Source of the DNA: Candidatus Dadabacteria bacterium
Lineage (GTDB): Bacteria > Desulfobacterota_D > UBA1144 > Nemesobacterales > Nemesobacteraceae
DNA: 64,000 nucleotides
Assembly (NCBI GenBank): GCA_022822065.1
Contig: JAJECI010000001.1
Span: 23,141 to 87,140, forward strand
Reading direction: 5' to 3'
Part shown: piece by piece, positions 2,346-15,018 of the stretch
How positions within the stretch are numbered: the first letter of the stretch is position 1
How the letters are laid out: each line of letters starts with the position of its first letter
The notes under the pieces: model-generated
Told to the model about the DNA's origin: nothing
What the model saw: the letters and a program-made list of their open reading frames with translations, nothing else
Database searches by the model: none
Made by a program: the position numbers and the translations under genes

Positions 2346-2519
2346 TTGGCAAAGACGAGTTCTCCATGCAACGGCATATGCATAATGGACGAGGATACGG
2401 GGCTCTGCGTCGGATGTCTCCGCACAAGCGACGAGATAGCGAACTGGGAAGAATACTCAGACGAGCAGAGGACTGAAGTCATGCGTGAAATAACGCGGCG
2501 GGAAGCGGAGCAGGACTAG
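2346..2519 (+). CDS. Small Cys-rich DUF1289-family protein.
   Basis: Motif CNGICIMDEDTGLCVGCLRTSDEIANW (CxGxC…CxGCxRTxxEIxxW). The likely start is TTG at 2346, 7 nt after a GGAGGA (2333-2338). The listed ATG at 2310 would overlap the purC 3' end. Confidence 0.6.
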   Translation: MAKTSSPCNGICIMDEDTGLCVGCLRTSDEIANWEEYSDEQRTEVMREITRREAEQD

Positions 2520-3331
2520 TGAAGACCGTGAGCATCCTTGGCTGCGGCTGGCTCGGAGAGCCGCTCGCATACTCCCTCAAGGAAGCGGGTTTTTCGGTAA
2601 GAGGGTCGGTCAGGAAACCCGAGGGGCTCACCGCCCTTTCGCAAAAGGGAATAGAATCCTACCTTATAGACATAGCCCCCGAGGTAAACGGAGAGGAGAC
2701 AGACGAATTTTTCTCCTCGGACGTTCTTTTCATAAACTTTCCCCCCGAGCGAAGAGACGACATCGAGACTTACCACGAAAAACAGATCGAAAACCTCATC
2801 GGGGCGATACCGAACCCCCAGGGGAAAATGGTCATTTTTGCCAGTTCGACCTCCGTTTACCCGAATACAAACGGGGTCGTGCGCGAAGAGGACTCCCTCT
2901 ATCCTGACAAACCGTCGGGAAAGGCTCTTCTGCGCGTGGAGAGGCTTCTCACGGACCACCCTGAAATCGATACGACCGTCATACGTTTTTCGGGGCTCAT
3001 AGGCTACGACAGGGCGCCCATAAAATCGATCAGAAGAAAAAAACTGGTGCTTAACCCCAACTGCCCCCTTAACCTCATACACCGCGATGACTGCATAGGA
3101 ATCATTCGAAGCATAATAGATCTTGACGTAAGAAATACCATCCTCAACGCCACCTGCGACGAACATCCCACAAGAAGGGAATATTACTCGCGCGAAGCTC
3201 AAAAATACGGAATCCCGCCGCCGCTTTTCGAAACGGAAAATCCGCCGGAGTACAAGATAGTCTCAAACGAAAAGTTGAAGAGAACACTCGGGTACAGATT
3301 GATTTATCCGGACCCGCTCGGCATACCCTAG
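2519..3331 (+). CDS. NAD(P)-binding Rossmann-fold oxidoreductase, SDR/epimerase-like (YeeZ-like).
   Basis: N-terminal ILGCGWLG glycine-rich dinucleotide-binding motif, GTG start, 270 aa. Confidence 0.5.
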   Translation: MKTVSILGCGWLGEPLAYSLKEAGFSVRGSVRKPEGLTALSQKGIESYLIDIAPEVNGEETDEFFSSDVLFINFPPERRDDIETYHEKQIENLIGAIPNPQGKMVIFASSTSVYPNTNGVVREEDSLYPDKPSGKALLRVERLLTDHPEIDTTVIRFSGLIGYDRAPIKSIRRKKLVLNPNCPLNLIHRDDCIGIIRSIIDLDVRNTILNATCDEHPTRREYYSREAQKYGIPPPLFETENPPEYKIVSNEKLKRTLGYRLIYPDPLGIP

Positions 3332-3526
3332 AGAATGGACAGATTCCCCAGACAATGGGACATGATCTGAAAAGGGATAATTTCCTTTATTTTTAATAAG
3401 GCGCACATCTGGTATTCTTCATTCTTGGCAAACTACTTGTAGTTGCCTGTGCTTAATCTATTCTCAAAGTTGCGCTTCAGGGTCTAATTCACAGTTTTCG
3501 ATCGAGTTGCTTCTTTGGTTCACAAA

Positions 3527-3555
3527 TTGATAAGCTGAAACATACTTCTTAACAT
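3527..3555 (+). promoter_or_regulatory. Putative sigma70 promoter for the DUF262/DUF1524 gene.
   Basis: TTGATA (3527-3532), 17-nt spacer, TAACAT (3550-3555). An AGGAG RBS at 3571-3575 precedes the TTG start at 3583. Confidence 0.3.
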
Positions 3556-3582
3556 GTACGGATTTTTGTAAGGAGAAAATCC

Positions 3583-5691
3583 TTGAAAGCTTCAGAAGCT
3601 CAACTTTTTGGGGTTCTCAAGAAATCACCTCAATTCATCATTCCCATCTACCAGCGTACTTACTCGTGGAGAGAAAAAGAATGTCGTCAGCTATGGCATG
3701 ACATTGTCCGAGCTGGAAATAACGATGCGATACCGTTGCACTTTTTTGGTTCCATTGTCTACATCCAAGAAGGTCTTTCATTAATCACCCATCAAGAACC
3801 GCTACTCGTTATTGACGGCCAACAACGCCTAGCAACAGTTATGATACTCTTGGCCGCTTTGGCAGAAGCACTCGGCGACGAAAGCGAACCTATCGAGGGC
3901 TTTTCTGCCAGCAAACTACGCAATTACTATCTCTTAAACCCTAGCGAATCAGGTGAACGTCGCTATAAACTTCTCCTCTCCCAAACTGACAAAGAGACCC
4001 TTATTTCAATTGTTGATAAACGACAACTCCCTATGTCATACTCGCTTCGGCTCAAAAAGAACTTCGATCTATTCAAAGACCTTATTGCTGAACAACAAGG
4101 AGATTTAACCCCAATTTATAAAGGGGTGGCAAAATTAATTATCGTCGAAGTCGCCCTCGATCGTGATCAAGATAATCCACAGCTTATCTTCGAAAGTCTG
4201 AATTCGACAGGTCGCGAACTTAGCCAAGCAGATCTGGTCAGAAATTTTATTCTCATGGAACTGAAACCAGAAGCTCAAACCCGCATCTATAAAGAATTTT
4301 GGCAACCTATGGAGATAATGTTCGGACAAGAAGCGTATGAAACGGACTTCAACGAATTTATGCGATATTACTTGACTGTGAAAACAGGGGAAATTCCACG
4401 TCGCAATGATGTGTATGAAGTTTTTAAGGAATACGCCAGATCACAAAAGATTGCCGAGGAGAATATTGAGACTCTGGTCAACGATATTTACAGCTTTGCT
4501 AAGTTTTACTGTGCAATGGCTCTTGACCAAGAAACAGACTCTGACCTCAAACTCGCTTTTCATGACCTTCGAGAGTTGAAGATGGGCGTAGTCTACCCAT
4601 TCCTGCTGGAATTATACAAAGACTATATTGACGGACTGCTGACCAAAGAAAACTTTCTTAGGGCTATCAGGTTGATTGAGTCTTATCTTTTCCGGCGTTC
4701 TATATGCACGATCCCGACCAACTCGCTTAACAAAACTTTTGCCACGTTTACCAAGTCCTTGCAAAAAAACCGATACATCGAAAGTATTAAAGCACATTTC
4801 TTATTGTTGCAATCCTATCGCCGTTTTCCAGATGACCAAGAATTCAAACGTGATTTGCAGACTCGCAATCTGTATAACTTCAGAAATCGTAGCTACTGGC
4901 TACGTCGATTGGAAAACCACGATAAAAAAGAACGCGTTCCAGTCGACGAGTACACAATCGAGCATATTATGCCCCAGAACAAAGCCCTGCCCAATGGTTG
5001 GAAGGAAGCTCTCGGCAACGAATGGGAACGTGTTCATCAGACCTATTTGCATACATTGGGAAACTTGACGCTTACTGGGTACAACTCCGAGTATAGTGAT
5101 CACTCGTTCAAAGAGAAATGCAATATGGAAGGTGGTTTCAAGCACAGCCCTCTTAAGGTCAACTCAGGACTTAGTGAATGGAAAACGTGGGACGAAAATT
5201 CAATCAAATCCCGTGCTGAAATTTTAGCGGAGCAAATGGTGAAAATCTGGCAGGCACCCGTATTATCTGCCGAAATTCTTGAGAATTATAAGCCAAAAGA
5301 AAACAGAGCAATTGAGTACTCAATAGATAACTATTCGAATCTGTCGGACCCCCGAATTCGTGAACTCTTTGAAGCGTTTCGCAAAGAGGTTTTAGGGTTT
5401 GATCCATGCGTCTCAGAGGAACGCAGAAAAAACTATATCGCATACAAAGCGGAAACCAATTTCGTATATCTCAATCCGCAAGTAAATCAGCTTCGACTAA
5501 ACCTTATTATCAGCTTTTCAGACATAAATGACCCACGCGGTATTTGCGAGAATGTTCTTCCCAGCCAAGGACATAACCAAGCAAGCCGTGAAGTTGTTGT
5601 CAGGTTTAGAGAAATCGATAAATTACCTTACGTAGTCGGGTTAGCGCGTCAAGCCTTTGAAACACAGCTCGGAAATGGAGACAACACATAG
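3583..5691 (+). CDS. DUF262 (ParB-like NTPase/nuclease) plus DUF1524 (HNH-like) fusion protein. GmrSD/SspE/BrxU-family putative modification-dependent (type IV) restriction endonuclease.
   Basis: The N-terminus has IPIYQRTYSW and DGQQR motifs (DUF262). The C-terminus has …YTIEHIMPQN…LGNLTLTGYN… (DUF1524 HNH-like). It is 702 aa with a TTG start and an RBS, and sits in a lower-GC region. Confidence 0.75.
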   Translation: MKASEAQLFGVLKKSPQFIIPIYQRTYSWREKECRQLWHDIVRAGNNDAIPLHFFGSIVYIQEGLSLITHQEPLLVIDGQQRLATVMILLAALAEALGDESEPIEGFSASKLRNYYLLNPSESGERRYKLLLSQTDKETLISIVDKRQLPMSYSLRLKKNFDLFKDLIAEQQGDLTPIYKGVAKLIIVEVALDRDQDNPQLIFESLNSTGRELSQADLVRNFILMELKPEAQTRIYKEFWQPMEIMFGQEAYETDFNEFMRYYLTVKTGEIPRRNDVYEVFKEYARSQKIAEENIETLVNDIYSFAKFYCAMALDQETDSDLKLAFHDLRELKMGVVYPFLLELYKDYIDGLLTKENFLRAIRLIESYLFRRSICTIPTNSLNKTFATFTKSLQKNRYIESIKAHFLLLQSYRRFPDDQEFKRDLQTRNLYNFRNRSYWLRRLENHDKKERVPVDEYTIEHIMPQNKALPNGWKEALGNEWERVHQTYLHTLGNLTLTGYNSEYSDHSFKEKCNMEGGFKHSPLKVNSGLSEWKTWDENSIKSRAEILAEQMVKIWQAPVLSAEILENYKPKENRAIEYSIDNYSNLSDPRIRELFEAFRKEVLGFDPCVSEERRKNYIAYKAETNFVYLNPQVNQLRLNLIISFSDINDPRGICENVLPSQGHNQASREVVVRFREIDKLPYVVGLARQAFETQLGNGDNT

Positions 5692-6068
5692 AATAAGTTA
5701 GCTTCTGATCTTACGAGACAGAACCACCCCGTTCGTGTTTCTACATGCAAAGTCATTCAGGGCACTCTTGATTCCAATGCATGAATAATACCTCTCAAGC
5801 CACCTTTTAACCTTTAAAATTGTATTAAATATTGAAAACTTTCTTGGAATCCTAAAACATTTTTATACTATTTTCGCTGTCAAGATGCTTTGCAAATAGT
5901 CTTTAAGCACTTGTGCAATCCCGACCAACCATAGGCCGATTGGATGTCACCAGCGTTTCACCGCTGGACAGCAACAAAGTTCCACAGAAGAGGGAATTCC
6001 CGAATTTTCTTGAATTTTCCCGTTTTTTCTCACAAAATAATCAGCAACAACCAAGACGTGAGTCCGCT

Positions 6069-6248
6069 ATGTCCGATGAAATTATGACTCTCAAAGAAAT
6101 AGCTGAATACCTGAAACTGAAGGAGAAAACCGCTTACCGGCATGCTGCCGAAGGTATTTTGCCAGGGTTCAAAGTTGGTGGCGCATGGAGATTCAGAAAG
6201 GCGGACATCGATGCGTGGATCGAAAAAAACAAGAATTCCGCACAATGA
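6069..6248 (+). CDS. Small helix-turn-helix DNA-binding protein (excisionase/AlpA/MerR-like HTH_17 type), putative regulator coupled to the methyltransferase.
   Basis: MSDEIMTLKEIAEYLKLKEKTAYRHAAEGILPGFKVGGAWRFRKADIDAWIEKNK (60 aa). Its stop (6246-6248) overlaps the MTase ATG (6245) as ATGA. The listed longer ORF 5913..6248 has no support upstream of this Met. Confidence 0.55.
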   Translation: MSDEIMTLKEIAEYLKLKEKTAYRHAAEGILPGFKVGGAWRFRKADIDAWIEKNKNSAQ

Positions 6249-7783
6249 CGAAAAAGAGTAAAACCTATCCCGTAATTGATCTGTTTGCTGGGCCCGGAGG
6301 ATTGGGCGAAGGATTTGCATCTCTCAAAAATAAAAACGGCAAAGCTGCATTTGAGTCAGTTGCATCAATAGAAACGGACAAAACTGCTCATGACACATTG
6401 ACGCTCCGACATTTCTTCCGCTGCTTCCGGGAAGACCAGGTCCCCGAGGCCTATTACAGATATGTGTCTGGAGAAATTTCAAAGTCAGATTTAATCGAAC
6501 TTTATCCAAAGCAATGGAATATCGCCTGTGAAAGCTCATTGAATATAACTCTTGGAAGCGAAAACCACGAACTTGTAAAAAAGGCGATAAAAAAGCGTCT
6601 GGCTAGATCAAAAAACTGGGTTCTTGTTGGTGGGCCACCGTGTCAGGCTTATTCTCTTGTCGGACGTTCCCGCATGATGAGAATAGATGGATTTGAAAAA
6701 GATGAGAGACATTTTCTCTACCGCGAATACCTGAAGATAATTGTTGATCACAGGCCTCCGGTTTTCGTCATGGAGAACGTAAAGGGGCTTCTTTCTTCCA
6801 AGACCGATGGGGAATTTGTCGTTCAGAAAATTGTCGATGATCTTTCCAGTCCTATAAAAGCAGTTACGTCAAGACAGAATGGACTACGATACAACCTTTA
6901 CCCGCTTAGCTCTGCCCGGCTTTTCAAGCACGAAGTTGATCCTTGGGAATTCGTTGTCAGGGCTGAGGCTTATGGCATACCCCAAGCACGGCACCGGATG
7001 TTCGTTGTTGGCATCAGGGAAGATATTGATATCAGCCCATCCCCCCTTTCTCCTTCTGACCCTCCGAATGTAAAAAAGGTTATCGGCAACCTGCCTAGGA
7101 TCAGAAGTGGTGTATCTAAAGGCAGCGACTCTCCAGAAAGGTGGCGTTCTATTGTCTCAGAAGCTGCAGAAAGCACATGGCTGAGACAGTTAAGATCTTC
7201 TGATTATGAACGGCTAGTCTCAAAACTTGAGGCTGTAATTTCAAAAATTTCTCATGCTCCGCAACGAACAAGTGCAAAAACGTATAAATCGACACCTGTT
7301 CTGAATGGGTGGTTTTACGATGAACGACTGAAATCTCTTCTCTCACATGAAGCGCGCTCTCACATGCCCAGTGATCTTCATAGGTATCTTTTTGTATCAA
7401 CTTATGCTTCTGTTTTCAGATATTCACCAAAGCTTACAGATTTCCCAGATGCTCTTTTACCGAAGCATCGAAGTGCGTCTCGAGAAAGAAATCCTGTAGC
7501 TTTTTCTGATCGTTTCAGAGTTCAGCTTTGTGAGCGGGTAGCTACAACTATAACTTCACACATTTCAAAGGATGGTCATTATTTCATCCATTATGATCCG
7601 GTTCAATGTCGCAGCCTAACTGTTCGTGAAGCGGCAAGGTTGCAGACCTTTCCGGATAATTATCATTTTGAGGGACCCAGAACATCGCAATACCATCAAA
7701 TTGGTAACGCTGTTCCTCCCTATCTCGCAAGGCAGATTGCAGAAGTAATAAAAGAAGTCATGGACACACTGCCCGAAGACTGA
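6245..7783 (+). CDS. dcm: DNA (cytosine-5)-methyltransferase.
   Basis: Motifs are I DLFAGPGGLGEGF, IV GGPPCQAYS, VI VFVMENVKGL and X QIGNAVPPYLA. The start is taken at MTKKSKTYPVIDLF (6245). The listed start at 6185 overlaps the HTH gene. Confidence 0.9.
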   Translation: MTKKSKTYPVIDLFAGPGGLGEGFASLKNKNGKAAFESVASIETDKTAHDTLTLRHFFRCFREDQVPEAYYRYVSGEISKSDLIELYPKQWNIACESSLNITLGSENHELVKKAIKKRLARSKNWVLVGGPPCQAYSLVGRSRMMRIDGFEKDERHFLYREYLKIIVDHRPPVFVMENVKGLLSSKTDGEFVVQKIVDDLSSPIKAVTSRQNGLRYNLYPLSSARLFKHEVDPWEFVVRAEAYGIPQARHRMFVVGIREDIDISPSPLSPSDPPNVKKVIGNLPRIRSGVSKGSDSPERWRSIVSEAAESTWLRQLRSSDYERLVSKLEAVISKISHAPQRTSAKTYKSTPVLNGWFYDERLKSLLSHEARSHMPSDLHRYLFVSTYASVFRYSPKLTDFPDALLPKHRSASRERNPVAFSDRFRVQLCERVATTITSHISKDGHYFIHYDPVQCRSLTVREAARLQTFPDNYHFEGPRTSQYHQIGNAVPPYLARQIAEVIKEVMDTLPED

Positions 7784-8196
7784 TGACTGATATTTTGAGC
7801 AAAGAAAAGAGAAGCTGGAACATGTCCCGAATCCGTTCGGGAAACACAAAACCGGAAATTGCGGTTCGCCGTATTCTTCATTTCCTCGGATACAGGTTCA
7901 GACTGCACAGAAAGGACCTGCCCGGAAAGCCGGACATTGTTTTGCCGAAATACAAAACCGTTATCTTTGTTCATGGCTGTTTCTGGCACAGACATGAAAA
8001 CTGCCGGTACTCCTACAACCCGAAATCACGCACAAAATTCTGGCAGAATAAATTCGCAGCCAATATTGAGCGGGATAAACAGAATGCAGCAAAACTGGAA
8101 ATACTTGGTTGGCGACGGCTTGTGATCTGGGAATGTGAGACAAAGAACCCGGAGAATATTCGCTCCATTATTGAACGGTTCTTTGAAAAAATTTGA
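7783..8196 (+). CDS. vsr: Very short patch repair endonuclease.
   Basis: RSGNTKPE…GKPDIVLPKY…VIFVHGCFWHRHENC signature. The ATG overlaps the dcm stop (TGATG at 7781-7785). Confidence 0.9.
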   Translation: MTDILSKEKRSWNMSRIRSGNTKPEIAVRRILHFLGYRFRLHRKDLPGKPDIVLPKYKTVIFVHGCFWHRHENCRYSYNPKSRTKFWQNKFAANIERDKQNAAKLEILGWRRLVIWECETKNPENIRSIIERFFEKI

Positions 8197-8342
8197 GATT
8201 TAAAGGCCTTCTGCTCACATATATTAGCCCTCTTACTTTCATATATTCACTAATTTTCGACATATATACTGCATATATATCTGCATAGACGTATCAAATC
8301 TACCCTTAAAATGATACATTTGGCATTTATATATGAAATATA

Positions 8343-8371
8343 TTGACAATATTACATCGTTGGTGTATACT
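8343..8371 (+). promoter_or_regulatory. Near-consensus sigma70 promoter driving the four-gene candidate operon.
   Basis: TTGACA (8343-8348), 17-nt spacer, TATACT (8366-8371). An AGGAGA RBS at 8383-8388 precedes the ATG at 8395. It lies in an AT-rich region with CATATAT-type repeats. Confidence 0.5.
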
Positions 8372-8394
8372 TACCCTTAAACAGGAGACTGGTA

Positions 8395-8625
8395 ATGCGC
8401 GATAAACGTAAAAAATTTGTTGAGCTGGCAGAAGCCAGAGTGAACCGTGCAGTTAAAGATATCCGGCTTATCGGCAATCTCTCCAACCGAGGTTCTTATG
8501 AATATTCAGAGCAAGATGCGCGCGAGATTTTCAAGGCACTCCAAAAGGAACTTGACGCTGCAAAAAGCAGGTTCTCTGAAAATGGTGAGGGTGGAGTCGA
8601 TTCATTTCGACTGAGCAGTCGCTGA
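8395..8625 (+). CDS. 76-aa hypothetical protein, charged and probably helical or coiled-coil. It is the first gene of the candidate operon.
   Basis: Good RBS and promoter. No recognisable motif. A 6-bp-stem hairpin (8595-8612) lies in the 3' end. Confidence 0.5.
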   Translation: MRDKRKKFVELAEARVNRAVKDIRLIGNLSNRGSYEYSEQDAREIFKALQKELDAAKSRFSENGEGGVDSFRLSSR

Positions 8626-8672
8626 TATTTGAAACGCAGACAGTAAAGAACATTTGTTTATAAGAGGTACAA

Positions 8673-10598
8673 TTGATGAGTGAAATACGACTTGAATTTT
8701 TGCCCAATGTAGGAGGGGAAGCCGAGGGCCTCAGTGATGGGGGCATAGAAACTTTTCGCGAAAATCCATTCGCCGCTGTTGCCCGTGAAACAGGCCAGAA
8801 CAGCCGCGACGCCCGCGACGATACTAATAACCCAGTAAAACTTACTTTCGACATCGTGACGCTAGAGTCAGAGAAATTTCCGTCTATCGAGCAGTACAGA
8901 GAAGCCGCCGAACTTTGTCTGGATAAATCATCCGCGGCAAATAAAGAGAAGGAAACGGGCTTCTTCGGGAATGCTTGCAAAATTCTTAATGCCGAAAATA
9001 TCAGGATTCTCAGAATTTCAGATTTCAATACAAAAGGCGTTCGTGGACCATGTAAAGAGGGTACCCCCTTCCATACGCTTGCTAAAACTGACGGCGTCAG
9101 TGAAAAGGAGGACAGAGACTCTGGTGGTTCTTTCGGCATAGGCAAGAACGCAACCTTTGCCCTTTCAGATATCCAGACTGTCTTCATTTCAACTCTCTAC
9201 ACAGATGAGAACGGAAACGGTCAGGTTCTCTGTATGGGAAAAACATTATTTATTTCTCATAGAGGAAACGATGGGGAGGAGAAAAGGGGGAAAGGATACT
9301 GGGGCAAGTCAGAAAGATATATGCCGTTAGACAGCCCCAGTGAAATTCCGGAATGGCTTCTGCGTGATAAACAGGGAACCTCAATTTTCTCCATCTGCAT
9401 GCGTGACAACCGGACAGACTGGCGCTACGAAATGGCAGCAGCAATACTGATCAATTTTTTCTGCTCTATAGAGCGCCAAGAAATGGAATTTGAAATTGAT
9501 GAGGGGTCGATCAAAATTAATCGTGGAACACTTCAGGCACTTTTCAGCAACAGCCGGGTCAACAAAGCTGTAGATGAGCTTAATGCACGTGTCGCGTTTG
9601 AAACAGCGAGAACCCTCCATGCCTGTCTGATTGATGAGCAGACTTTCATAGAAAATCTGGAGATCGAAGACTTGGGAACGGTCCGCATGCATATGCTGAT
9701 GCGTGACGGCCTTGGATATACAATCGGTATCATCCGTAACGGCATGTATATCACCGACAATCTCTCCCATTTTAACGAACCCTTCAAACGCTTTCCGCTC
9801 CACCGTGATTTTGCTGTAATTATTGAGCCCGTCGGTAAAAGAGAAGGTGAGTGGTTCAAACGACTTGAGAATCCCAGTCATAACAGTCTGTCTGCAGAGG
9901 GAATAACCGACCCTGAACTCAGAGCCAAGGGGCGTAAAGCTTTTGAGAAACTTGCAAAAAAAATACGCAGCAGAATCCAAGCGTTGGCCAAGTCACAGCC
10001 GTCGAATACACTGGAGCTCGATGAACTGAATGATTTCTTCGCCTCGGATGAAACAAGAAGCGAAGATGATGCCGGAATGGAAACAGATCCCCAATCAAAA
10101 AAGCCCACGCCTGTCAGGCCTGTAAAACCCAAGCCACCAACTCCTGATTCCCGCAAACAAACTTCACCAGATGACCCTCCTATCCCCGGACCCGAACCCG
10201 GACCTGAACCAGTTGATGAACCCTCTCCAGATCCGGAGCCACGACCGGAGCCCGGACCAGTACCACATCCAAGGAAGATCATGAAACCAGTTGAATTGAT
10301 ATCAGAACGTGCCCTGATACCGGACAAGTCAAATGCGAGCAGAAGGCAGTTCAGATTCACTTCGCCCATTTCTGCAGAGATCGTGCTCTATGCCGATGCA
10401 ACCGGCTTGACAAACTCTGAACGTCTAAACCCAGTAAGCACATCGGAAGGCCGAATCGAGAACAGTGCTATTGAAGTGTCTTGCACAGCGAATCAGCGTA
10501 ACAGCATTGATGTGGTCTTTGATGCCCCTTATACCGGCCCTGTCGAAATCTTAGCTTACCAAGTTGAAGAAGAACAACAGGCAGGAGAGTCGGCATGA
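8673..10598 (+). CDS. GHKL-superfamily (MORC/MutL/Hsp90-like, HATPase_c_3-type) ATPase with a Pro/Glu/Gly-rich linker and a C-terminal domain of unknown function.
   Basis: Bergerat-fold motifs are the N-box AVARETGQNSRDA (ExxxNSxDA, nt ~8787-8816), a G1-like ISDFNTKGVRG and the G2 box GGSFGIGKNA (nt ~9124-9150). A PEPGPEP-rich linker is at ~10080-10280. The start is TTG at 8673 or ATG at 8676, with an AAGAGG RBS. The stop overlaps the next gene's ATG (ATGA at 10595-10598). Confidence 0.7.
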   Translation: MMSEIRLEFLPNVGGEAEGLSDGGIETFRENPFAAVARETGQNSRDARDDTNNPVKLTFDIVTLESEKFPSIEQYREAAELCLDKSSAANKEKETGFFGNACKILNAENIRILRISDFNTKGVRGPCKEGTPFHTLAKTDGVSEKEDRDSGGSFGIGKNATFALSDIQTVFISTLYTDENGNGQVLCMGKTLFISHRGNDGEEKRGKGYWGKSERYMPLDSPSEIPEWLLRDKQGTSIFSICMRDNRTDWRYEMAAAILINFFCSIERQEMEFEIDEGSIKINRGTLQALFSNSRVNKAVDELNARVAFETARTLHACLIDEQTFIENLEIEDLGTVRMHMLMRDGLGYTIGIIRNGMYITDNLSHFNEPFKRFPLHRDFAVIIEPVGKREGEWFKRLENPSHNSLSAEGITDPELRAKGRKAFEKLAKKIRSRIQALAKSQPSNTLELDELNDFFASDETRSEDDAGMETDPQSKKPTPVRPVKPKPPTPDSRKQTSPDDPPIPGPEPGPEPVDEPSPDPEPRPEPGPVPHPRKIMKPVELISERALIPDKSNASRRQFRFTSPISAEIVLYADATGLTNSERLNPVSTSEGRIENSAIEVSCTANQRNSIDVVFDAPYTGPVEILAYQVEEEQQAGESA

Positions 10599-11428
10599 AG
10601 CTGAATGAGAGAATGCGTTATCCGCACCCTGTTCTAAGCAAATTTTCCTCCGATTATACGACTGGGGAGTTTTCTGCGGCTTTCTCTCATCAGGTTACTG
10701 ATGACGACCAGTTGAAAATTGCTTCAGACTTGTCCACTGACTGTGATGAATTGAGAGTTCTTATCGAAGATCAGAAGGCTTCCGCAGGATATTTTGTTGT
10801 ATGCAGACCCACATATTTCAACCACCTTCAGCTCGTTCCACTCGGAGAGTCAGAAAAATTCTTTGAATTGAGTCAACTTTATGGAGCGGTTTCTCTGCGT
10901 CCCGTAATATGGACCCTTGAAGATGTCGAAAATTATTCGAGCCCTTTAATTGACGCTGAATTCGGCAAGGAAATTGTCATAACAAAAGGTGTAGTTATAG
11001 CTATGGGGCGAGAGTTCCAGTTTTCTATTGATCAACAGAAATTCAAACCATTTGAAACCATATTCGACCTAGCTCAGAGCAAAGACATCAAACCGGGAAT
11101 GATCGAAGTTGATCCTGAAGGGGACAAAATTACAATTCTAGCAGAACCGGAAACCTACAATTCTATCGCCAACATGCGAAATATCCTTCAGGGACGCACA
11201 ATTCTTATTAACGCTGTCTACATGCCAGCCGTCATGGACATTGTCTCAAGACTTCAGACAGACGGCCCAAGCTTGGAGAGCAAACGCTGGTACAGAGTTT
11301 TCAAGGCAAAATGCGACGATATTGGCATCAATCCGTCAGATAAGACCTTCTTGCCTCTTGAGGTTGCACAGGAACTTCTGAGAGGCCCTCTAAAGGCAAC
11401 CATACAAGTCATGGAGTCCATGAGATGA
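10595..11428 (+). CDS. 277-aa hypothetical protein, third gene of the candidate operon.
   Basis: Translationally coupled on both sides by ATGA overlaps. I recognise no conserved motifs. Confidence 0.5.
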   Translation: MKLNERMRYPHPVLSKFSSDYTTGEFSAAFSHQVTDDDQLKIASDLSTDCDELRVLIEDQKASAGYFVVCRPTYFNHLQLVPLGESEKFFELSQLYGAVSLRPVIWTLEDVENYSSPLIDAEFGKEIVITKGVVIAMGREFQFSIDQQKFKPFETIFDLAQSKDIKPGMIEVDPEGDKITILAEPETYNSIANMRNILQGRTILINAVYMPAVMDIVSRLQTDGPSLESKRWYRVFKAKCDDIGINPSDKTFLPLEVAQELLRGPLKATIQVMESMR

Positions 11429-12180
11429 ATGAACCTCTTAAGTATCTCTCGGACAGGGCGTTGTCAGAACTTAGAAACTCTATCTCGGAAAATATTGAGC
11501 GGTATACAGGCAATGGTTTTGAGGAATATGCTTTTCTGCCGTCATGGGATATCTCTCTGAAAATCAACTTCGACAAGAATCTCCTTGCTACGCTTGATAC
11601 GAAACGGCAACGCGCAATTGTCGAGATTGATCTTGCAAATTCAAAAATTGTCGGCAAGGCACTGGAAAACCTGACGCCATCACTGGCGAATGAAGAGCGC
11701 ATCTGGGTTCGTCTTTCTCATCTGGAAGCATTTGAATACAGTAGAATACGCTGGCTTACAGGAAAAGAAGGTGAGTATCTTGTTTCCTCCATAGAAAGAC
11801 ATTTCTTTGCGCCCACTCAAACAATCATCCGTGATGACCATGCACTGTCGCGACTATGGTGGAACTATCATATTGCACGAACCTGCATGCCAGACAATAT
11901 AGATAAGGCTTTAGAGCTTATCCTGAAAACCGCTGACATCAGAAGTAACTTTGTCGAGCGAATCTGGATGAGCAGCCGCAGAAACATCGCAGGTGCTGTT
12001 CTGCGGGCAATGGATACACAGGAATGGATTACCGATGCCGAACAGAACTTTCGCGAGTTCATGAAAGTACTCAACCGTCAAGGCGGCGGAATCGTTTTTG
12101 AAGCCCTGAGCGAGTCAGAAGCCGATGCATTTGTTCAGGAATGTACAGACCGAGCAATGAACATAATGGGAGCAGTTTAA
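11425..12180 (+). CDS. 251-aa hypothetical protein, last gene of the candidate operon.
   Basis: ATGA overlap with the upstream gene. No recognisable motifs. An AT-rich non-coding region follows. Confidence 0.5.
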   Translation: MNEPLKYLSDRALSELRNSISENIERYTGNGFEEYAFLPSWDISLKINFDKNLLATLDTKRQRAIVEIDLANSKIVGKALENLTPSLANEERIWVRLSHLEAFEYSRIRWLTGKEGEYLVSSIERHFFAPTQTIIRDDHALSRLWWNYHIARTCMPDNIDKALELILKTADIRSNFVERIWMSSRRNIAGAVLRAMDTQEWITDAEQNFREFMKVLNRQGGGIVFEALSESEADAFVQECTDRAMNIMGAV

Positions 12181-12430
12181 TTCTAAATATTATTCCAATT
12201 CAGGGTTGTGCCCTCAGCGGACTCCAAGAAAAAATAGACGTTTCACAAGGCTCGGGTTCGTCTGCGCCCGCCGTCGATTTGTCATTCCGTTTGCATACCC
12301 CCGTTCGCCACGAGGCTTGTTTGCCCTTGCTTTTATGTTCTTAAAAGTTATTTTTTCGTTTTTTCTTCATTCATTATGGATAATAATTCACCTGAAAATA
12401 GTAAAAATATCAGAGAATTAGAACAAAAAA

Positions 12431-12459
12431 TTGATATTTCTTCAATATACCGTTATTAT
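12431..12459 (+). promoter_or_regulatory. Putative sigma70 promoter for the Panacea-domain pair.
   Basis: TTGATA (12431-12436), 17-nt spacer, TATTAT (12454-12459). Confidence 0.35.
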
Positions 12460-12488
12460 CATGACCGAAAGTCAAATGGGAGAGTCCG

Positions 12489-12962
12489 GTGGCACGGATT
12501 AAAAGTACCGTTCAGGATGTCGCAAAATATATCCTGAAGAGGCTTGCTTCTAAGGGTGAAGATAACATCACTTCTTGGAAGCTTCAAAAATTAGTTTATT
12601 ACTGTCAAGCGTGGTCGTTAGTCTGGGAGGAGGCCCCTCTTTTCTTGGAAGAAATACAAGCTTGGGCCGATGGGCCGGTCTGTCCTGACCTTTACCATAA
12701 ACATAAGCGTAAATTCAGGCTTGACCCTGATGATATTAAGGGAAACACAAGGAAGTTGTCTCCCAGTCAGCGAGAAACGATTAATGCTGTTTTGGACTAC
12801 TACGGAGATAAAACAGGACGCTACTTAAGCGACCTTACACATCTTGAAAGACCATGGATTGAGGCTCGTGCTGGTTTACAACCTGGGGAGAGAGGTAGTG
12901 TTGTAATTGAGTATAACGACATGGTTGATTACTATGGCGGCTTAATTAATAGTGCCGAGTAG
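12489..12962 (+). CDS. Panacea-domain (DUF4065, SocA/GepA-like) protein, putative antitoxin.
   Basis: …SWKLQKLVYYCQAWSLVWEEAPLFLEEIQAWADGPVCPDLY… matches the DUF4065 core. GTG start, 157 aa. Confidence 0.65.
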   Translation: MARIKSTVQDVAKYILKRLASKGEDNITSWKLQKLVYYCQAWSLVWEEAPLFLEEIQAWADGPVCPDLYHKHKRKFRLDPDDIKGNTRKLSPSQRETINAVLDYYGDKTGRYLSDLTHLERPWIEARAGLQPGERGSVVIEYNDMVDYYGGLINSAE

Positions 12963-13407
12963 TAAAAAGAAGAAACTAACTAGAAAACCTAAGCAAGACC
13001 AAAACCCAGCAACTCTTTCAAAGACCCCTAAATCGATTTCCACAAGTGTTAGCAATGAACACTTCCGCTGGGATGTAAGGAACGCTGACTTTGATGGCGA
13101 GTACGGATGGAAGAAGGTTGAGATAAAAACTTTGTTCCGAGAAATCATTCCTAAACTCAGACAGTTTGAAAGCATGAAGTGGGGAGAAATTGAGGGAGAG
13201 GATAGTCATTTTGTTGATGTGGATAAGTGTAGTACAGAAGCTCAGAAACGCTTGAAAAGAATTAAACTAGATGACTTGGAACAGCTGTTCTCTTTGCGAA
13301 TAGGGGGCAAAAAGCGGATATTTGGCTGGCGGGAAAAATCAGTTTTTCATGTGCTTTGGTGGGATCCAGACCATAAAGTTTATCCGTCAAAAATGAAGTA
13401 CACTTAA
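12952..13407 (+). CDS. 151-aa basic hypothetical protein, putative toxin partner of the Panacea protein.
   Basis: Its GTG start overlaps the upstream gene by 11 nt. It has a Lys-rich N-terminus and a conserved-looking FHVLWWDPDHKVYP block. Confidence 0.4.
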   Translation: MPSSKKKKLTRKPKQDQNPATLSKTPKSISTSVSNEHFRWDVRNADFDGEYGWKKVEIKTLFREIIPKLRQFESMKWGEIEGEDSHFVDVDKCSTEAQKRLKRIKLDDLEQLFSLRIGGKKRIFGWREKSVFHVLWWDPDHKVYPSKMKYT

Positions 13408-13636
13408 TTCCTAACTGACATTGTATACAATCTCCCAAAGTCCCCTTTTCAAAAATCCCCTGAATTTTTGGCTAGCTATGTATGTTATTCCCTCTGAAAG
13501 CTGTTGAGAAAAACCTTAAAAAAGGGGAAAATAGACGGAAGTGGAAAGCGAAATTGCACAATATCGTTTTCGGGTGGGAGCAAAAACCATAAAATTTCCA
13601 GACACGGAGCGTAATTTCTCCCGCGCGGCAGCCTAG

Positions 13637-14632
13637 GTGCCTATGGACGGAATCAGGGAACTTGAACTTGAGAACATAGAAGCGGTAAAGGTCCTCTACG
13701 GGGAACTTAACTCGAATCTCAAGGAAATAGAAAACGAATTCGACATAAGCATCCACACCCGGGGCAACAAAATCACTCTCAAGGGGAATGAGGAAAGGAC
13801 CGCGGAAGCGGGCATGCTCATGGGGCAGATGTACTCGCTTATAGAGAAGGGCTATGTTCTCCAGCCTTCCGACATAAAAATAGCGAAGAGGCTTCTCAGC
13901 CAGAAAGACGCCTCCCTTGAAGAGATATTTCTCGACACGATCTGCATATCCGTACGGAAAAAAATAATAAGCCCCAAGACCATAAACCAGAAACTCTACA
14001 TCGACGCGATAAGAAGAAACGACATGGTGTTCGGCATAGGACCCGCGGGAACGGGAAAAACCTATCTGGCAATGGCGATGGCCGTCTCGGCGTTTACGAA
14101 TAAGAAGGTGAACAGAATAGTGCTCGCGCGGCCCGCCGTGGAGGCTGGAGAGAAACTCGGGTTCCTCCCCGGCGATCTTCAGGAGAAGGTGAATCCCTAC
14201 CTGAGACCTCTTTTTGACGCTCTTTACGACATGATGGAATTTGAGAAGGCAAACAGGCTGATTGAAAAGAACATGATTGAAATCGTTCCGATAGCCTACA
14301 TGAGAGGAAGAACACTGAATGACGCGTTCATAATTCTCGATGAAGCCCAGAACACAACGGCGATACAGATGAAGATGTTCCTCACCCGACTCGGGTTCGG
14401 CTCAAAAACGGTCATAACGGGAGACATAACCCAGATAGACCTGGCCAGGGACCAGAGCTCGGGACTTATCGAAGCCATGAACATCCTCTCAGGAATAAAG
14501 GGGATAGAGTTCGTCAACTTCTCAAAGACCGACGTCATAAGGCACCCGCTGGTCATGAGAATAATAGACGCGTACGAAAAAATTAAGGATAATGTCAGCG
14601 GACGTACCCCCGCAACAGGAGAAAACGAATGA
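13637..14632 (+). CDS. phoH: PhoH-family ATPase (phosphate-starvation-inducible protein).
   Basis: Walker A GIGPAGTGKTYLAMA and a typical PhoH C-terminal region. The start is GTG at 13637 or ATG at 13643. Confidence 0.85.
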   Translation: MPMDGIRELELENIEAVKVLYGELNSNLKEIENEFDISIHTRGNKITLKGNEERTAEAGMLMGQMYSLIEKGYVLQPSDIKIAKRLLSQKDASLEEIFLDTICISVRKKIISPKTINQKLYIDAIRRNDMVFGIGPAGTGKTYLAMAMAVSAFTNKKVNRIVLARPAVEAGEKLGFLPGDLQEKVNPYLRPLFDALYDMMEFEKANRLIEKNMIEIVPIAYMRGRTLNDAFIILDEAQNTTAIQMKMFLTRLGFGSKTVITGDITQIDLARDQSSGLIEAMNILSGIKGIEFVNFSKTDVIRHPLVMRIIDAYEKIKDNVSGRTPATGENE

Positions 14633-15018
14633 AAATACTCGCCGTCTTTTTTCTCGCAGCCATGCTGCTTGCTCCCTCGTGCAGGAGATGGGAGAACCCG
14701 GCGACTTCCATGGTGTCGGCCGACAAATCCGTAGCGGTTCTTATTCTTAACCCCTCTGTGTACACGATGCAGGAAGTGCGCGTCAGGGGAAAGGTGTGGG
14801 AAATTAAAACAACGGAAGAACCGGCAGAATCAACGATCTTCAAACTGGCCGACAGCGACGGAAACTACATAACGGTCGTCTGGGAAAAGGAACTCTTCTT
14901 CTCAGAAGGAAACATAGTCGAAGCGGCAGGCCTTTTTGACAGCAACTTCATCTCCTCTGAGAACAGGTTTGACCCCAAGCTTACGGCGCAGACAATCGAG
15001 GTTCTGAAAGGGGACTGA
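14629..15018 (+). CDS. Lipoprotein of unknown function.
   Basis: Signal peptide plus lipobox (LLAPSC). ATGA overlap with the phoH stop. Confidence 0.5.
   Translation: MKILAVFFLAAMLLAPSCRRWENPATSMVSADKSVAVLILNPSVYTMQEVRVRGKVWEIKTTEEPAESTIFKLADSDGNYITVVWEKELFFSEGNIVEAAGLFDSNFISSENRFDPKLTAQTIEVLKGD

Follow-up and report, generated by a model that had tools for sequence, protein, structure and literature searches.

Defence hotspots that are flanked by core genes and lack an integrase are known from Pseudomonas, E. coli and Vibrio, and in the E. coli defence-island hotspot study most hotspots reportedly hold recognisable mobile elements (prophages, satellites, integrase-bearing islands). Core-flanked hotspots of horizontal gene transfer without mobile-element genes have been documented, and double homologous recombination at their flanks has been proposed (PMC5635113, PMC10250203). 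We analysed a 64,000-nucleotide stretch of a Candidatus Dadabacteria genome (assembly GCA_022822065.1, contig JAJECI010000001.1, positions 23,141 to 87,140 of the forward strand; hereafter the window), in which a first-pass annotation had described positions 3332-13636, between a core oxidoreductase gene and phoH, as a defence island of low guanine-plus-cytosine (GC) content. We found that the segment 3374-13497 is very probably a horizontally acquired, mosaic defence island sitting in an oxidoreductase-phoH hotspot that varies across the whole lineage.

PhoH served as the anchor for a scan of a single genome from each species, which gave about 30 Candidatus Dadabacteria relatives with PhoH at 85-98% amino acid identity and the gene order purC-oxidoreductase-(gap)-phoH-129aa-purA-hisZ, where 129aa is a small open reading frame (ORF). 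The left flank, purC-oxidoreductase, was kept at 24 loci (oxidoreductase orthologues at 67-90% amino acid identity) and the right flank, from phoH to hisZ, at about 30. The gap was empty in 11 genomes, with oxidoreductase and phoH 126-185 bp apart, and held an insert of 1.2-6.5 kb in 14 genomes; the oxidoreductase gene was absent from the 10 kb around phoH in four, and a contig end interrupted the gap in two. The adjacency of the two genes in 11 of about 30 relatives, the synteny check proposed in the first-pass annotation, favours acquisition. None of the GTDB representative genomes compared at the site carried the cargo of this window, and about 18 relatives carried a different one, with at least 10 cargo types overall: XhoI-type restriction-modification (R-M) systems or their remnants (7 loci), Gabija (2 loci; GajA E 1e-256, GajB 1e-234), another GmrSD, a ThiF/E1-like module, Fic, a DruA fragment, transposases of the insertion sequences (IS) IS1595, IS110 and IS3 and of the DDE type, and the non-defence Cache sensor, PPDK_N proteins and DUF7802. 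Most of these inserts were also lower in GC than their own flanks. Sister genomes differed at the site (L numbers denote loci): L007 and L011 were empty and L013 carried an XhoI R-M system, L001 was empty and L042 occupied, and L018 was empty and L016 occupied, such that content differing between close relatives in the flank trees points to fast turnover.

Two of these kinds of cargo can be described further. The PPDK_N (pyruvate phosphate dikinase ATP-binding) proteins, of 939-1181 aa, lie at L012:6462-9368, L028:2364-5909 and L028:6635-9454, with those of L012 adjoining the IS110 and IS3 transposases. The cargo at L004:6341-9513 consists of a ThiF/E1-like protein (PADLOC E1-E2, 2e-18), 125-aa and 78-aa partners and a 367-aa protein, and may be a ubiquitin-like conjugation defence module. 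Several isolate names suggest that the relatives originate from sponges, and the genomes of the phylum represented here are small (1.5-2.4 Mb).

The junctions could be placed almost to the base. Homology to the empty site ran to position 3373 on the left, ending in GATCTGAAAA, and resumed at about 13495-13498 on the right, where CTGAAAG is followed across the junction by CTGTTGAGAAAAACCTTAAAAAA. The interval given at first was thus slightly wide, as its outer 42 bp (left) and 139 bp (right) are conserved empty-site sequence and the true insert is 3374-13497. Both halves of the empty site are intact around the insert, which indicates insertion into an empty-type allele and argues that the empty sites are not deletion products. 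The left break point in L082, a contig of a metagenomic relative that shares much of the cargo, was identical to that of the window. Right junctions lay at or a few bases 5' of a TTGAGA-17-GAAAAT motif in 9/14 occupied relatives, and left junctions were spread over 40 bp after the oxidoreductase stop codon. The surrounding motif 5' of phoH, CTGTTGAGAAAAACCTTAAAAAA(A)GGGAAAATA (window 13498-13535 and the corresponding position in L001-L042), is kept in about 26 species and forms the right limit of nearly all insertions; it probably serves as the promoter of phoH. Most simply, an insertion would survive only if it left intact both the stop codon of the oxidoreductase gene and the promoter motif of phoH.

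Flanking direct repeats had been reported absent, and nothing long was found, with the qualification that an imperfect 6-10-nt repeat flanks the insert. Both insert ends carry versions of a decamer GATYTGAAAA, in the window (GATCTGAAAA/CCTCTGAAAG, 7/10) and in L082 (GATTTGAAAA/GATTGTGAAG). These end decamers could be a target-duplication scar, the match being weak and the right junction of the window also resembling that of L003. No att-like pair or pair of terminal inverted repeats bracketed the island or its modules, as a comparison of 2400-14800 in direct and inverted orientation returned only short repeats at chance level.

Composition set the same segment apart. Sliding GC and tetranucleotide analysis upheld the low-GC description, with a GC of 0.436 in 3332-13636 and 0.539 over the remainder of the window; GC per 1-kb bin was 0.41-0.47 from 3001 to 13001 and 0.48 or above in every bin outside. 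Tetranucleotide distance to the rest of the window was 0.027-0.033 for 5-kb windows in the island and 0.010-0.016 elsewhere, which makes the island the sole outlier, at two to three times the distance of any other part. ORF finding and profile searches gave 11 island genes, every one of a defence or toxin-antitoxin type. All genes named in the first-pass annotation were present, and a conserved 76-aa ORF had been missed. The features of the locus are as follows.

2519-3331, plus strand: oxidoreductase of 270 aa, NAD(P)-binding and resembling short-chain dehydrogenases/reductases, left core flank (weak Pfam and NCBIfam matches to NAD-binding families)
3332-3373: retained left intergenic sequence of the empty site, ending in GATCTGAAAA at the left junction (aligned to the L005 and L037 empty sites up to TGAAAA)
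3374-13497: inserted island proper, 10.1 kb (missing from the 11 empty-site relatives; compositional outlier)
3583-5691, plus strand: module 1, GmrSD_N/GmrSD_C/DUF5655 nuclease, type IV restriction-like (DUF262/DUF1524; Pfam, PADLOC)
5876-8152, plus strand: module 2, HTH_17, Dcm and Vsr (Pfam; left breakpoint set at 5876 by L081 and at 5906 by L082)
about 6069-6248, within 5913-6248, plus strand: HTH_17 regulator (Pfam HTH_17, 5e-18)
6245-7783, alternative start 6185, plus strand: Dcm, C5 cytosine methyltransferase (Pfam DNA_methylase, PF00145, 8e-49)
7783-8196, plus strand: Vsr, T:G mismatch endonuclease (Pfam Vsr, 9e-33)
8343-8371, plus strand: putative sigma-70-like match TTGACA-17-TATACT 5' of the 76-aa ORF (11/12 consensus; position only)
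8395-8625, plus strand: conserved 76-aa ORF preceding M33A (homologue alignment)
8673-10598, plus strand: PDC-M33A, predicted GHKL (Hsp90/MutL-like) ATPase that has a linker rich in proline and a beta-sandwich domain at the C terminus (PADLOC 8e-97; AlphaFold2 model)
10595-11428, plus strand: PDC-M33B, predicted beta-sandwich plus helical protein (PADLOC 3e-43; AlphaFold2 predicted local distance difference test, pLDDT, 81)
11425-12180, plus strand: PDC-M33C, DUF6339 protein (Pfam DUF6339 9e-42; PADLOC 3e-29)
12188-13497, plus strand: module 4, Panacea pair with flanking intergenic DNA (no counterpart in L081-L083)
12489-12962, plus strand: Panacea (SocA-like) antitoxin gene (Pfam SocA_Panacea, 3e-19)
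12952-13407, plus strand: putative toxin gene, 151 aa, overlapping the Panacea gene (weak profile similarities)
13488-13497: right junction CCTCTGAAAG, a weak 7/10 copy of the left-junction decamer, possibly a target-duplication scar
13498-13636, plus strand: retained right sequence of the empty site with motif CTGTTGAGAAAAACCTTAAAAAA and the putative phoH promoter TTGAGA-17-GAAAAT (kept in 26 relatives)
13637-14632, plus strand: phoH, right core flank (85-98% amino acid identity in about 30 relatives)

None of the island ORFs showed an integrase, recombinase or transposase domain (Pfam, PADLOC, NCBIfam, PHROGs), in agreement with the first-pass annotation, and the intergenic gaps, at 377 bp or less, are too short for a hidden integrase or recombinase gene. 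The consensus-like promoters ascribed to the island fared less well as a group: there were 15 promoter-like sites against a shuffled expectation of 16 +/- 3.5, and the promoter and terminator scan as a whole gave counts equal to those expected from shuffled sequence. The two top promoter matches were nevertheless intergenic, at 8343-8371 (5' of the M33 small ORF) and 12431-12459 (5' of the Panacea gene; 10/12).

Evidence for a mosaic came from M33A homologues, which led to three informative contigs. L081 carries HTH-Dcm-Vsr-76aa-M33ABC at 94.4% identity to window 5876-12185 in another chromosomal context, between an unrelated gene and an HNH gene and by genes of the tricarboxylic acid cycle. 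L083 carries 76aa-M33ABC at 85.5% identity to window 8153-12148 at a third locus, inside another defence island; its cassette keeps the last 43 bp of the Vsr gene at the left edge, and its genome (the same as L015) has an empty oxidoreductase-phoH hotspot. In L082 the hotspot itself holds GmrSD, HTH-Dcm-Vsr-76aa-M33ABC, an XhoI R-M system and a caspase-like gene, and homology to the window ends at 12187 and resumes at 13498, which marks the Panacea pair as a separate module. The Panacea segment (12188-13497) had no counterpart in L081, L082, L083 or any relative examined, while GmrSD was common to the window and L082 (92.3% identity) and missing from L081. Judged from these alignments, the island would consist of at least three, probably four, separable cassettes, and the sharp, recurring breakpoints point to stepwise assembly, in line with the repeated insertion suggested initially. 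HTH-dcm-vsr and the GHKL operon, which had been listed as separate entries, are both present and behave as one linked unit, not as two independent systems. L083:9510-20687 (OZ242294.1) is a second Dadabacteria defence island, with the order 76aa-M33ABC-HNH-Dcm-Vsr-EcoRII-C-Dcm-HATPase_c_3 (MORC-like).

GmrSD matched Pfam GmrSD_N (1e-32, residues 12-223) and GmrSD_C (3e-26, residues 415-550), both above the gathering cut-off, as well as DUF5655 (1e-9) and the PADLOC models Orf5 (2e-188) and HEC-06 (1e-71); it presumably spares the 5-methylcytosine pattern of the neighbouring, active-looking Dcm. The Panacea gene overlaps its 151-aa partner by 11 bp, and the partner showed similarity to NsnC (1e-9, weak), the MAG6450 family (1e-7; 32.2 bits, below the 40-bit cut-off) and phrog_8366 (2e-13). 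The same overlapping pair occurs in L095 at 73% nucleotide identity, in the coding part only.

The Dcm-Vsr-M33 cassette is the most interesting element of the island, and it leaves current understanding in place. At 7783 the stop codon of dcm and the start of vsr overlap, and Dcm scored 152.9 bits against TIGR00675 (cut-off 100.65). PDC-M33A, PDC-M33B and PDC-M33C matched their PADLOC models in order and are co-oriented with 4-bp overlaps. The 76-aa ORF stood 5' of M33A in 12/12 lineages with upstream sequence (45-99% amino acid identity), and an alignment of eight sequences had 25 invariant columns. The GHKL label of the first-pass annotation found no backing in Pfam, as M33A did not match the GHKL models HATPase_c and HATPase_c_3 and gave a sub-threshold hit to the sacsin ATP-binding domain (E 0.007), but it gained support from structure prediction: in Foldseek, the AlphaFold2 model of M33A (26 homologues; pLDDT 76) matched TRAP1/Hsp90 (4.5e-8) and the MutL ATPase domain (2.6e-5), both with probability 1.0, and E39, N43 and D46 (ExxxNxxD) and G152-S-x-G-I-G-K were invariant in the 26 homologues. 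The model thereby supports a place for M33A in the GHKL ATPase superfamily, with a Bergerat fold of the MutL/Hsp90-like kind. Other comparisons were negative: by sequence, M33A had only low-complexity proline-rich matches in PDB, the M33B and M33C profiles had no relative there, the M33B AlphaFold2 model matched only generic immunoglobulin-like sandwiches in PDB (E > 6e-3), the M33 proteins had no match in PHROGs, and no nuclease fold was found in M33A or M33B. The literature searched made no mention of PDC-M33 or DUF6339.

The order small ORF-M33A-M33B-DUF6339 was kept in Dadabacteria, an alphaproteobacterial conjugative element, Rhizobium, Altererythrobacter and metagenomic contigs, and also in Priestia and Lactococcus plasmids and a temperate Clostridium phage; a metagenome scan with M33A gave five loci only. 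The gene after M33C varies (HNH, DUF5677, ExoI or, as in this window, none). A C5 methyltransferase lay within about 5 kb of the cassette in 10-11 of 12-13 independent lineages, usually with Vsr and sometimes with a nuclease of its own (EcoRII-C, LlaJI or Sau3AI type). One 3.9-kb JGI contig encodes a 359-aa protein (P0259) in which residues 1-255 of a Dcm of the window type are joined to the last ~100 residues of M33B. A Rosetta-stone fusion was considered and rejected, since a deletion has taken out Vsr, the small ORF, M33A and the greater part of M33B in frame; together with the Vsr remnant of L083, P0259 documents the ancestral Dcm-to-M33 gene order.

Two mobile contexts are of note in their own right. 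At L098:1907-8274 (phage NatCom_9291, PV036421.1), a complete small-A-B-DUF6339 cassette comes immediately after the integrase in a temperate phage of Clostridium innocuum, and an HTH-fused C5 methyltransferase lies 1 kb downstream of the cassette; the position after the integrase is where prophages typically carry defence genes. On a Lactococcus lactis conjugative plasmid (L096/L099, NZ_CP094475.1), a distant M33 cassette adjoins abiGI/abiGII and has a gene for an AlwI-family endonuclease upstream; with no C5 methyltransferase detected, this plasmid is one of the two exceptions to the Dcm linkage.

What the cassette does is read from gene neighbourhood and fold. R-M operons that combine MutL-like GHKL ATPases with cytosine methylases, Vsr-type endonucleases and HNH have been described (PMC2292703), and the Dcm-Vsr-M33 cassette is an uncharacterised member of this known GHKL/R-M theme, perhaps for restriction or as a guard, or else as an accessory to 5-methylcytosine repair. 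Tentatively, and at somewhat less than an even chance, HTH-Dcm-Vsr, the 76-aa ORF and PDC-M33A/B/C may form one widely mobile, 5-methylcytosine-linked system, in which a nuclease-free GHKL ATPase complex would act together with the methyltransferase and either Vsr or a nuclease encoded nearby, as a new restriction arm or a guard of cytosine R-M. The breadth of the cassette from Dadabacteria to phage, the Dcm linkage, the Vsr remnant and the deletion fusion are compatible with this reading.

It seems rather unlikely, if the best placed of the competing accounts, that HTH-Dcm-Vsr, the small ORF and M33A/B/C are instead a maintenance module for 5-methylcytosine with no anti-phage role, in which the MutL-like ATPase would assist Vsr in very-short-patch repair of T:G mismatches. 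The MutL/Hsp90-like fold of M33A fits such a role, as does the position of Vsr directly 5' of the cassette in the window, L081, L082, L084 and L091 (with the 3' remnant in L083), the M33 core has no recognisable nuclease, and in E. coli MutL's N-terminal domain binds and stimulates Vsr (PMC2715241). However, the PADLOC models owe their existence to the enrichment of the cassette in defence contexts, and M33 is found beside AbiG on the Lactococcus plasmid, beside a temperate-phage integrase and inside defence islands. Variable nuclease genes (HNH, Sau3AI/MutH-like, ExoI) often follow the cassette, and the phage and Priestia contexts have Dcm with Vsr not detected. The question concerns one cassette and leaves the verdict on the island unaffected.

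An alternative for the island as a whole is that the block is an old vertical resident of the site, lost repeatedly in most Dadabacteria lineages, which we regard as improbable. According to the first-pass annotation, finding the same block at the same site and with the same composition in related genomes would make it ancestral, and L082 is formally such a case, with GmrSD-HTH-Dcm-Vsr-M33 at the identical left junction; that the XhoI R-M cassettes at the hotspot diverge in step with the core also fits an old residence. But L082 was not the sister of the window in either flank tree (computed with pairwise deletion, since the L082 locus is truncated), where it paired with the empty-site L037. 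Third-codon identity between the window and L082 was 0.734 in core genes (purC, oxidoreductase, purA; n = 970) and 0.898 in the island (Vsr, small ORF, M33B, M33C; n = 745; Fisher p = 3e-18), which indicates a much more recent common ancestor for the shared block than for the backbone around it. Either horizontal spread of the block or clonal relatedness masked by later import of diverged core DNA would explain this, and in both cases the region is recombinogenic and the block accessory; the non-sister position and low third-codon divergence of L082 thus argue for horizontal spread or flank replacement and against an ancestral core block. The 11 intact empty sites, whose halves flank the window insert, are likewise a signature of insertion, not deletion, GC lies 10 points under the backbone, and the Dcm-M33 block occurs in other chromosomal contexts (L081, L083).

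Several genes of L082 are broken. At L082:4973-9105, GmrSD is in pieces of 259 and 188 aa and Dcm in pieces of 163 and 88 aa, and at L082:16200-16790 XhoI has 196 aa instead of 244; M33A/B/C and all core genes are intact. Such fragments may stem from genuine decay of part of the defence genes or else from indel errors of long reads, concentrated in AT-rich DNA.

That the island arrived in one step as a single integrative element (a genomic island, integrative and conjugative element (ICE) or prophage) and later lost its integrase and att sites is the least probable account, for although an imperfect decamer stands at both insert ends in the window and L082, an HTH_17 gene with an excisionase-like fold is present, and an ICE-like element (L084), plasmids and a temperate phage carry M33 cassettes, there is no integrase, relaxase or phage structural or replication gene or fragment in or beside the island, all ORFs are defence or toxin-antitoxin genes, the modules have independent distributions with sharp breakpoints in L081, L082, L083 and L095, the HTH_17 gene travels with the Dcm cassette in L081 and L082, and the repeat reaches only 7/10 with a right junction that is also like that of L003.

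Some observations weigh against acquisition of a mosaic defence island as we propose it. The relatives are all metagenome-assembled genomes, in which misassembly or strain mixtures are possible. The XhoI R-M cassettes at the hotspot show 80-90% identity where the core shows 85-93%, and this matched divergence implies that some hotspot cargo is old; taken as a check for recombination in the flanks, the cassettes did not exceed the core genes in similarity. The window and L082 could be true clonal relatives with overwritten flanks, in which case the left 8.8 kb would have been inherited vertically. Sliding identity between the two stood at 0.84-0.86 in the oxidoreductase gene's 3' part, fell to 0.62-0.66 over the island's first ~130 bp and reached 0.91-0.97 further inside, and no high-identity tract entered the flanks in this profile; with no recombination tract visible, a simple double crossover in the core flanks is not demonstrated. 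The anti-phage role of the island genes is predicted from sequence, with PDC-M33 a computational candidate.

For the acquired island that we favour, how recombination proceeded, in which order the insertions came and what each cassette does against phages are inferred along the following lines. Within the spacer, insertions would be admitted only after the stop codon of the oxidoreductase gene and before the promoter motif of phoH, and defence cargo there would vary from species to species or be missing altogether. In this genome, self-contained cassettes with a promoter region apiece may have come together in at least three steps: the GmrSD type IV nuclease, HTH-Dcm-Vsr with the four-gene GHKL cassette, and the Panacea toxin-antitoxin pair next to phoH. 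As the island holds no recombinase, either host recombination or enzymes acting in trans would be needed. Gain, loss and exchange may have proceeded through host recombination on DNA incoming from related cells, which we favour because the island has no recombinase of its own, as proposed for mobile-element-free hotspots; alternatively, enzymes in trans may have acted, for example the IS transposases that other species have at this site. A further, less likely possibility is a site-directed entry of cargo, independent of the island and leaving a duplication of about 10 bp.

The tRNA-Val(GAC) gene lies at 1243-1317 on the minus strand, about 2 kb from the island, with purC and the oxidoreductase gene in between, as the first-pass annotation had it. 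phoH and the next, 129-aa ORF (13637-15018) have a GC of 0.49-0.51, compared with about 0.55 beyond, and are placed outside the island, with the core, because they are kept in all relatives despite this intermediate GC. At the left end of the window, comparison with L082 showed that the plus-strand ORFs 213-665 and 672-1397 are spurious and that positions 1-1400 hold the 5' part of thrS on the minus strand and then tRNA-Val.

Core-flanked defence hotspots are a well-known phenomenon, of which this one is a clear and well-documented further example that extends the integrase-free pattern to an uncultured phylum with small genomes. One 175-bp spacer is found empty, with a single occupant or with several, its junctions resolved to the base pair, which amounts to a natural experiment on how a site is filled without a resident recombinase. 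For PDC-M33, the real unit is apparently four genes tightly linked to Dcm-Vsr, which gives a concrete candidate for defence testing.

Compared with described systems, the locus resembles cDHS1 and cDHS2 of Pseudomonas aeruginosa (PMC10250203) and the transfer hotspots without mobile-element genes (PMC5635113) in its fixed, core-bounded site with content from empty to many kb, its diverse defence systems, lower GC, lack of an obvious mobile-element class and variation between close relatives. It differs from them in belonging to an uncultured phylum, in being traced across species at ~90% identity instead of among strains, and in comprising a single ~175-bp spacer whose right edge is very sharply drawn at a promoter motif; the raised flank recombination reported for such hotspots (PMC10250203, PMC5635113) was not seen here in one genome pair. 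Like the E. coli defence-island hotspots, it holds defence systems at a recurrent integration position defined by core genes, whereas no recognisable mobile element is present at the Dadabacteria island. M33A recalls the MORC/paraMORC GHKL ATPases (Iyer, Abhiman and Aravind 2008, PMC2292703), in which a MutL-like ATPase stands by a cytosine methylase, a Vsr-superfamily endonuclease and sometimes HNH. In this comparison, made by neighbourhood theme, it differs from paraMORC in that no superfamily II helicase was seen at any M33 locus, in lacking a Pfam GHKL match, and in always occurring with the 76-aa ORF, M33B and DUF6339. The Panacea pair is like PanA-PanT (PMC8832971, PMC10440598) in its Panacea/SocA protein, overlapping bicistron and small unrelated partner, although the 151-aa partner, a putative toxin, falls outside the characterised toxin families. 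The nuclease has both domains of the GmrSD/DUF262-DUF1524 enzymes (also SspE and PADLOC HEC-06) at full length in one polypeptide, here with an extra C-terminal DUF5655. All three signature proteins of PADLOC PDC-M33 are matched in the right order, here joined by a 76-aa gene and a near-constant Dcm(-Vsr) neighbour.

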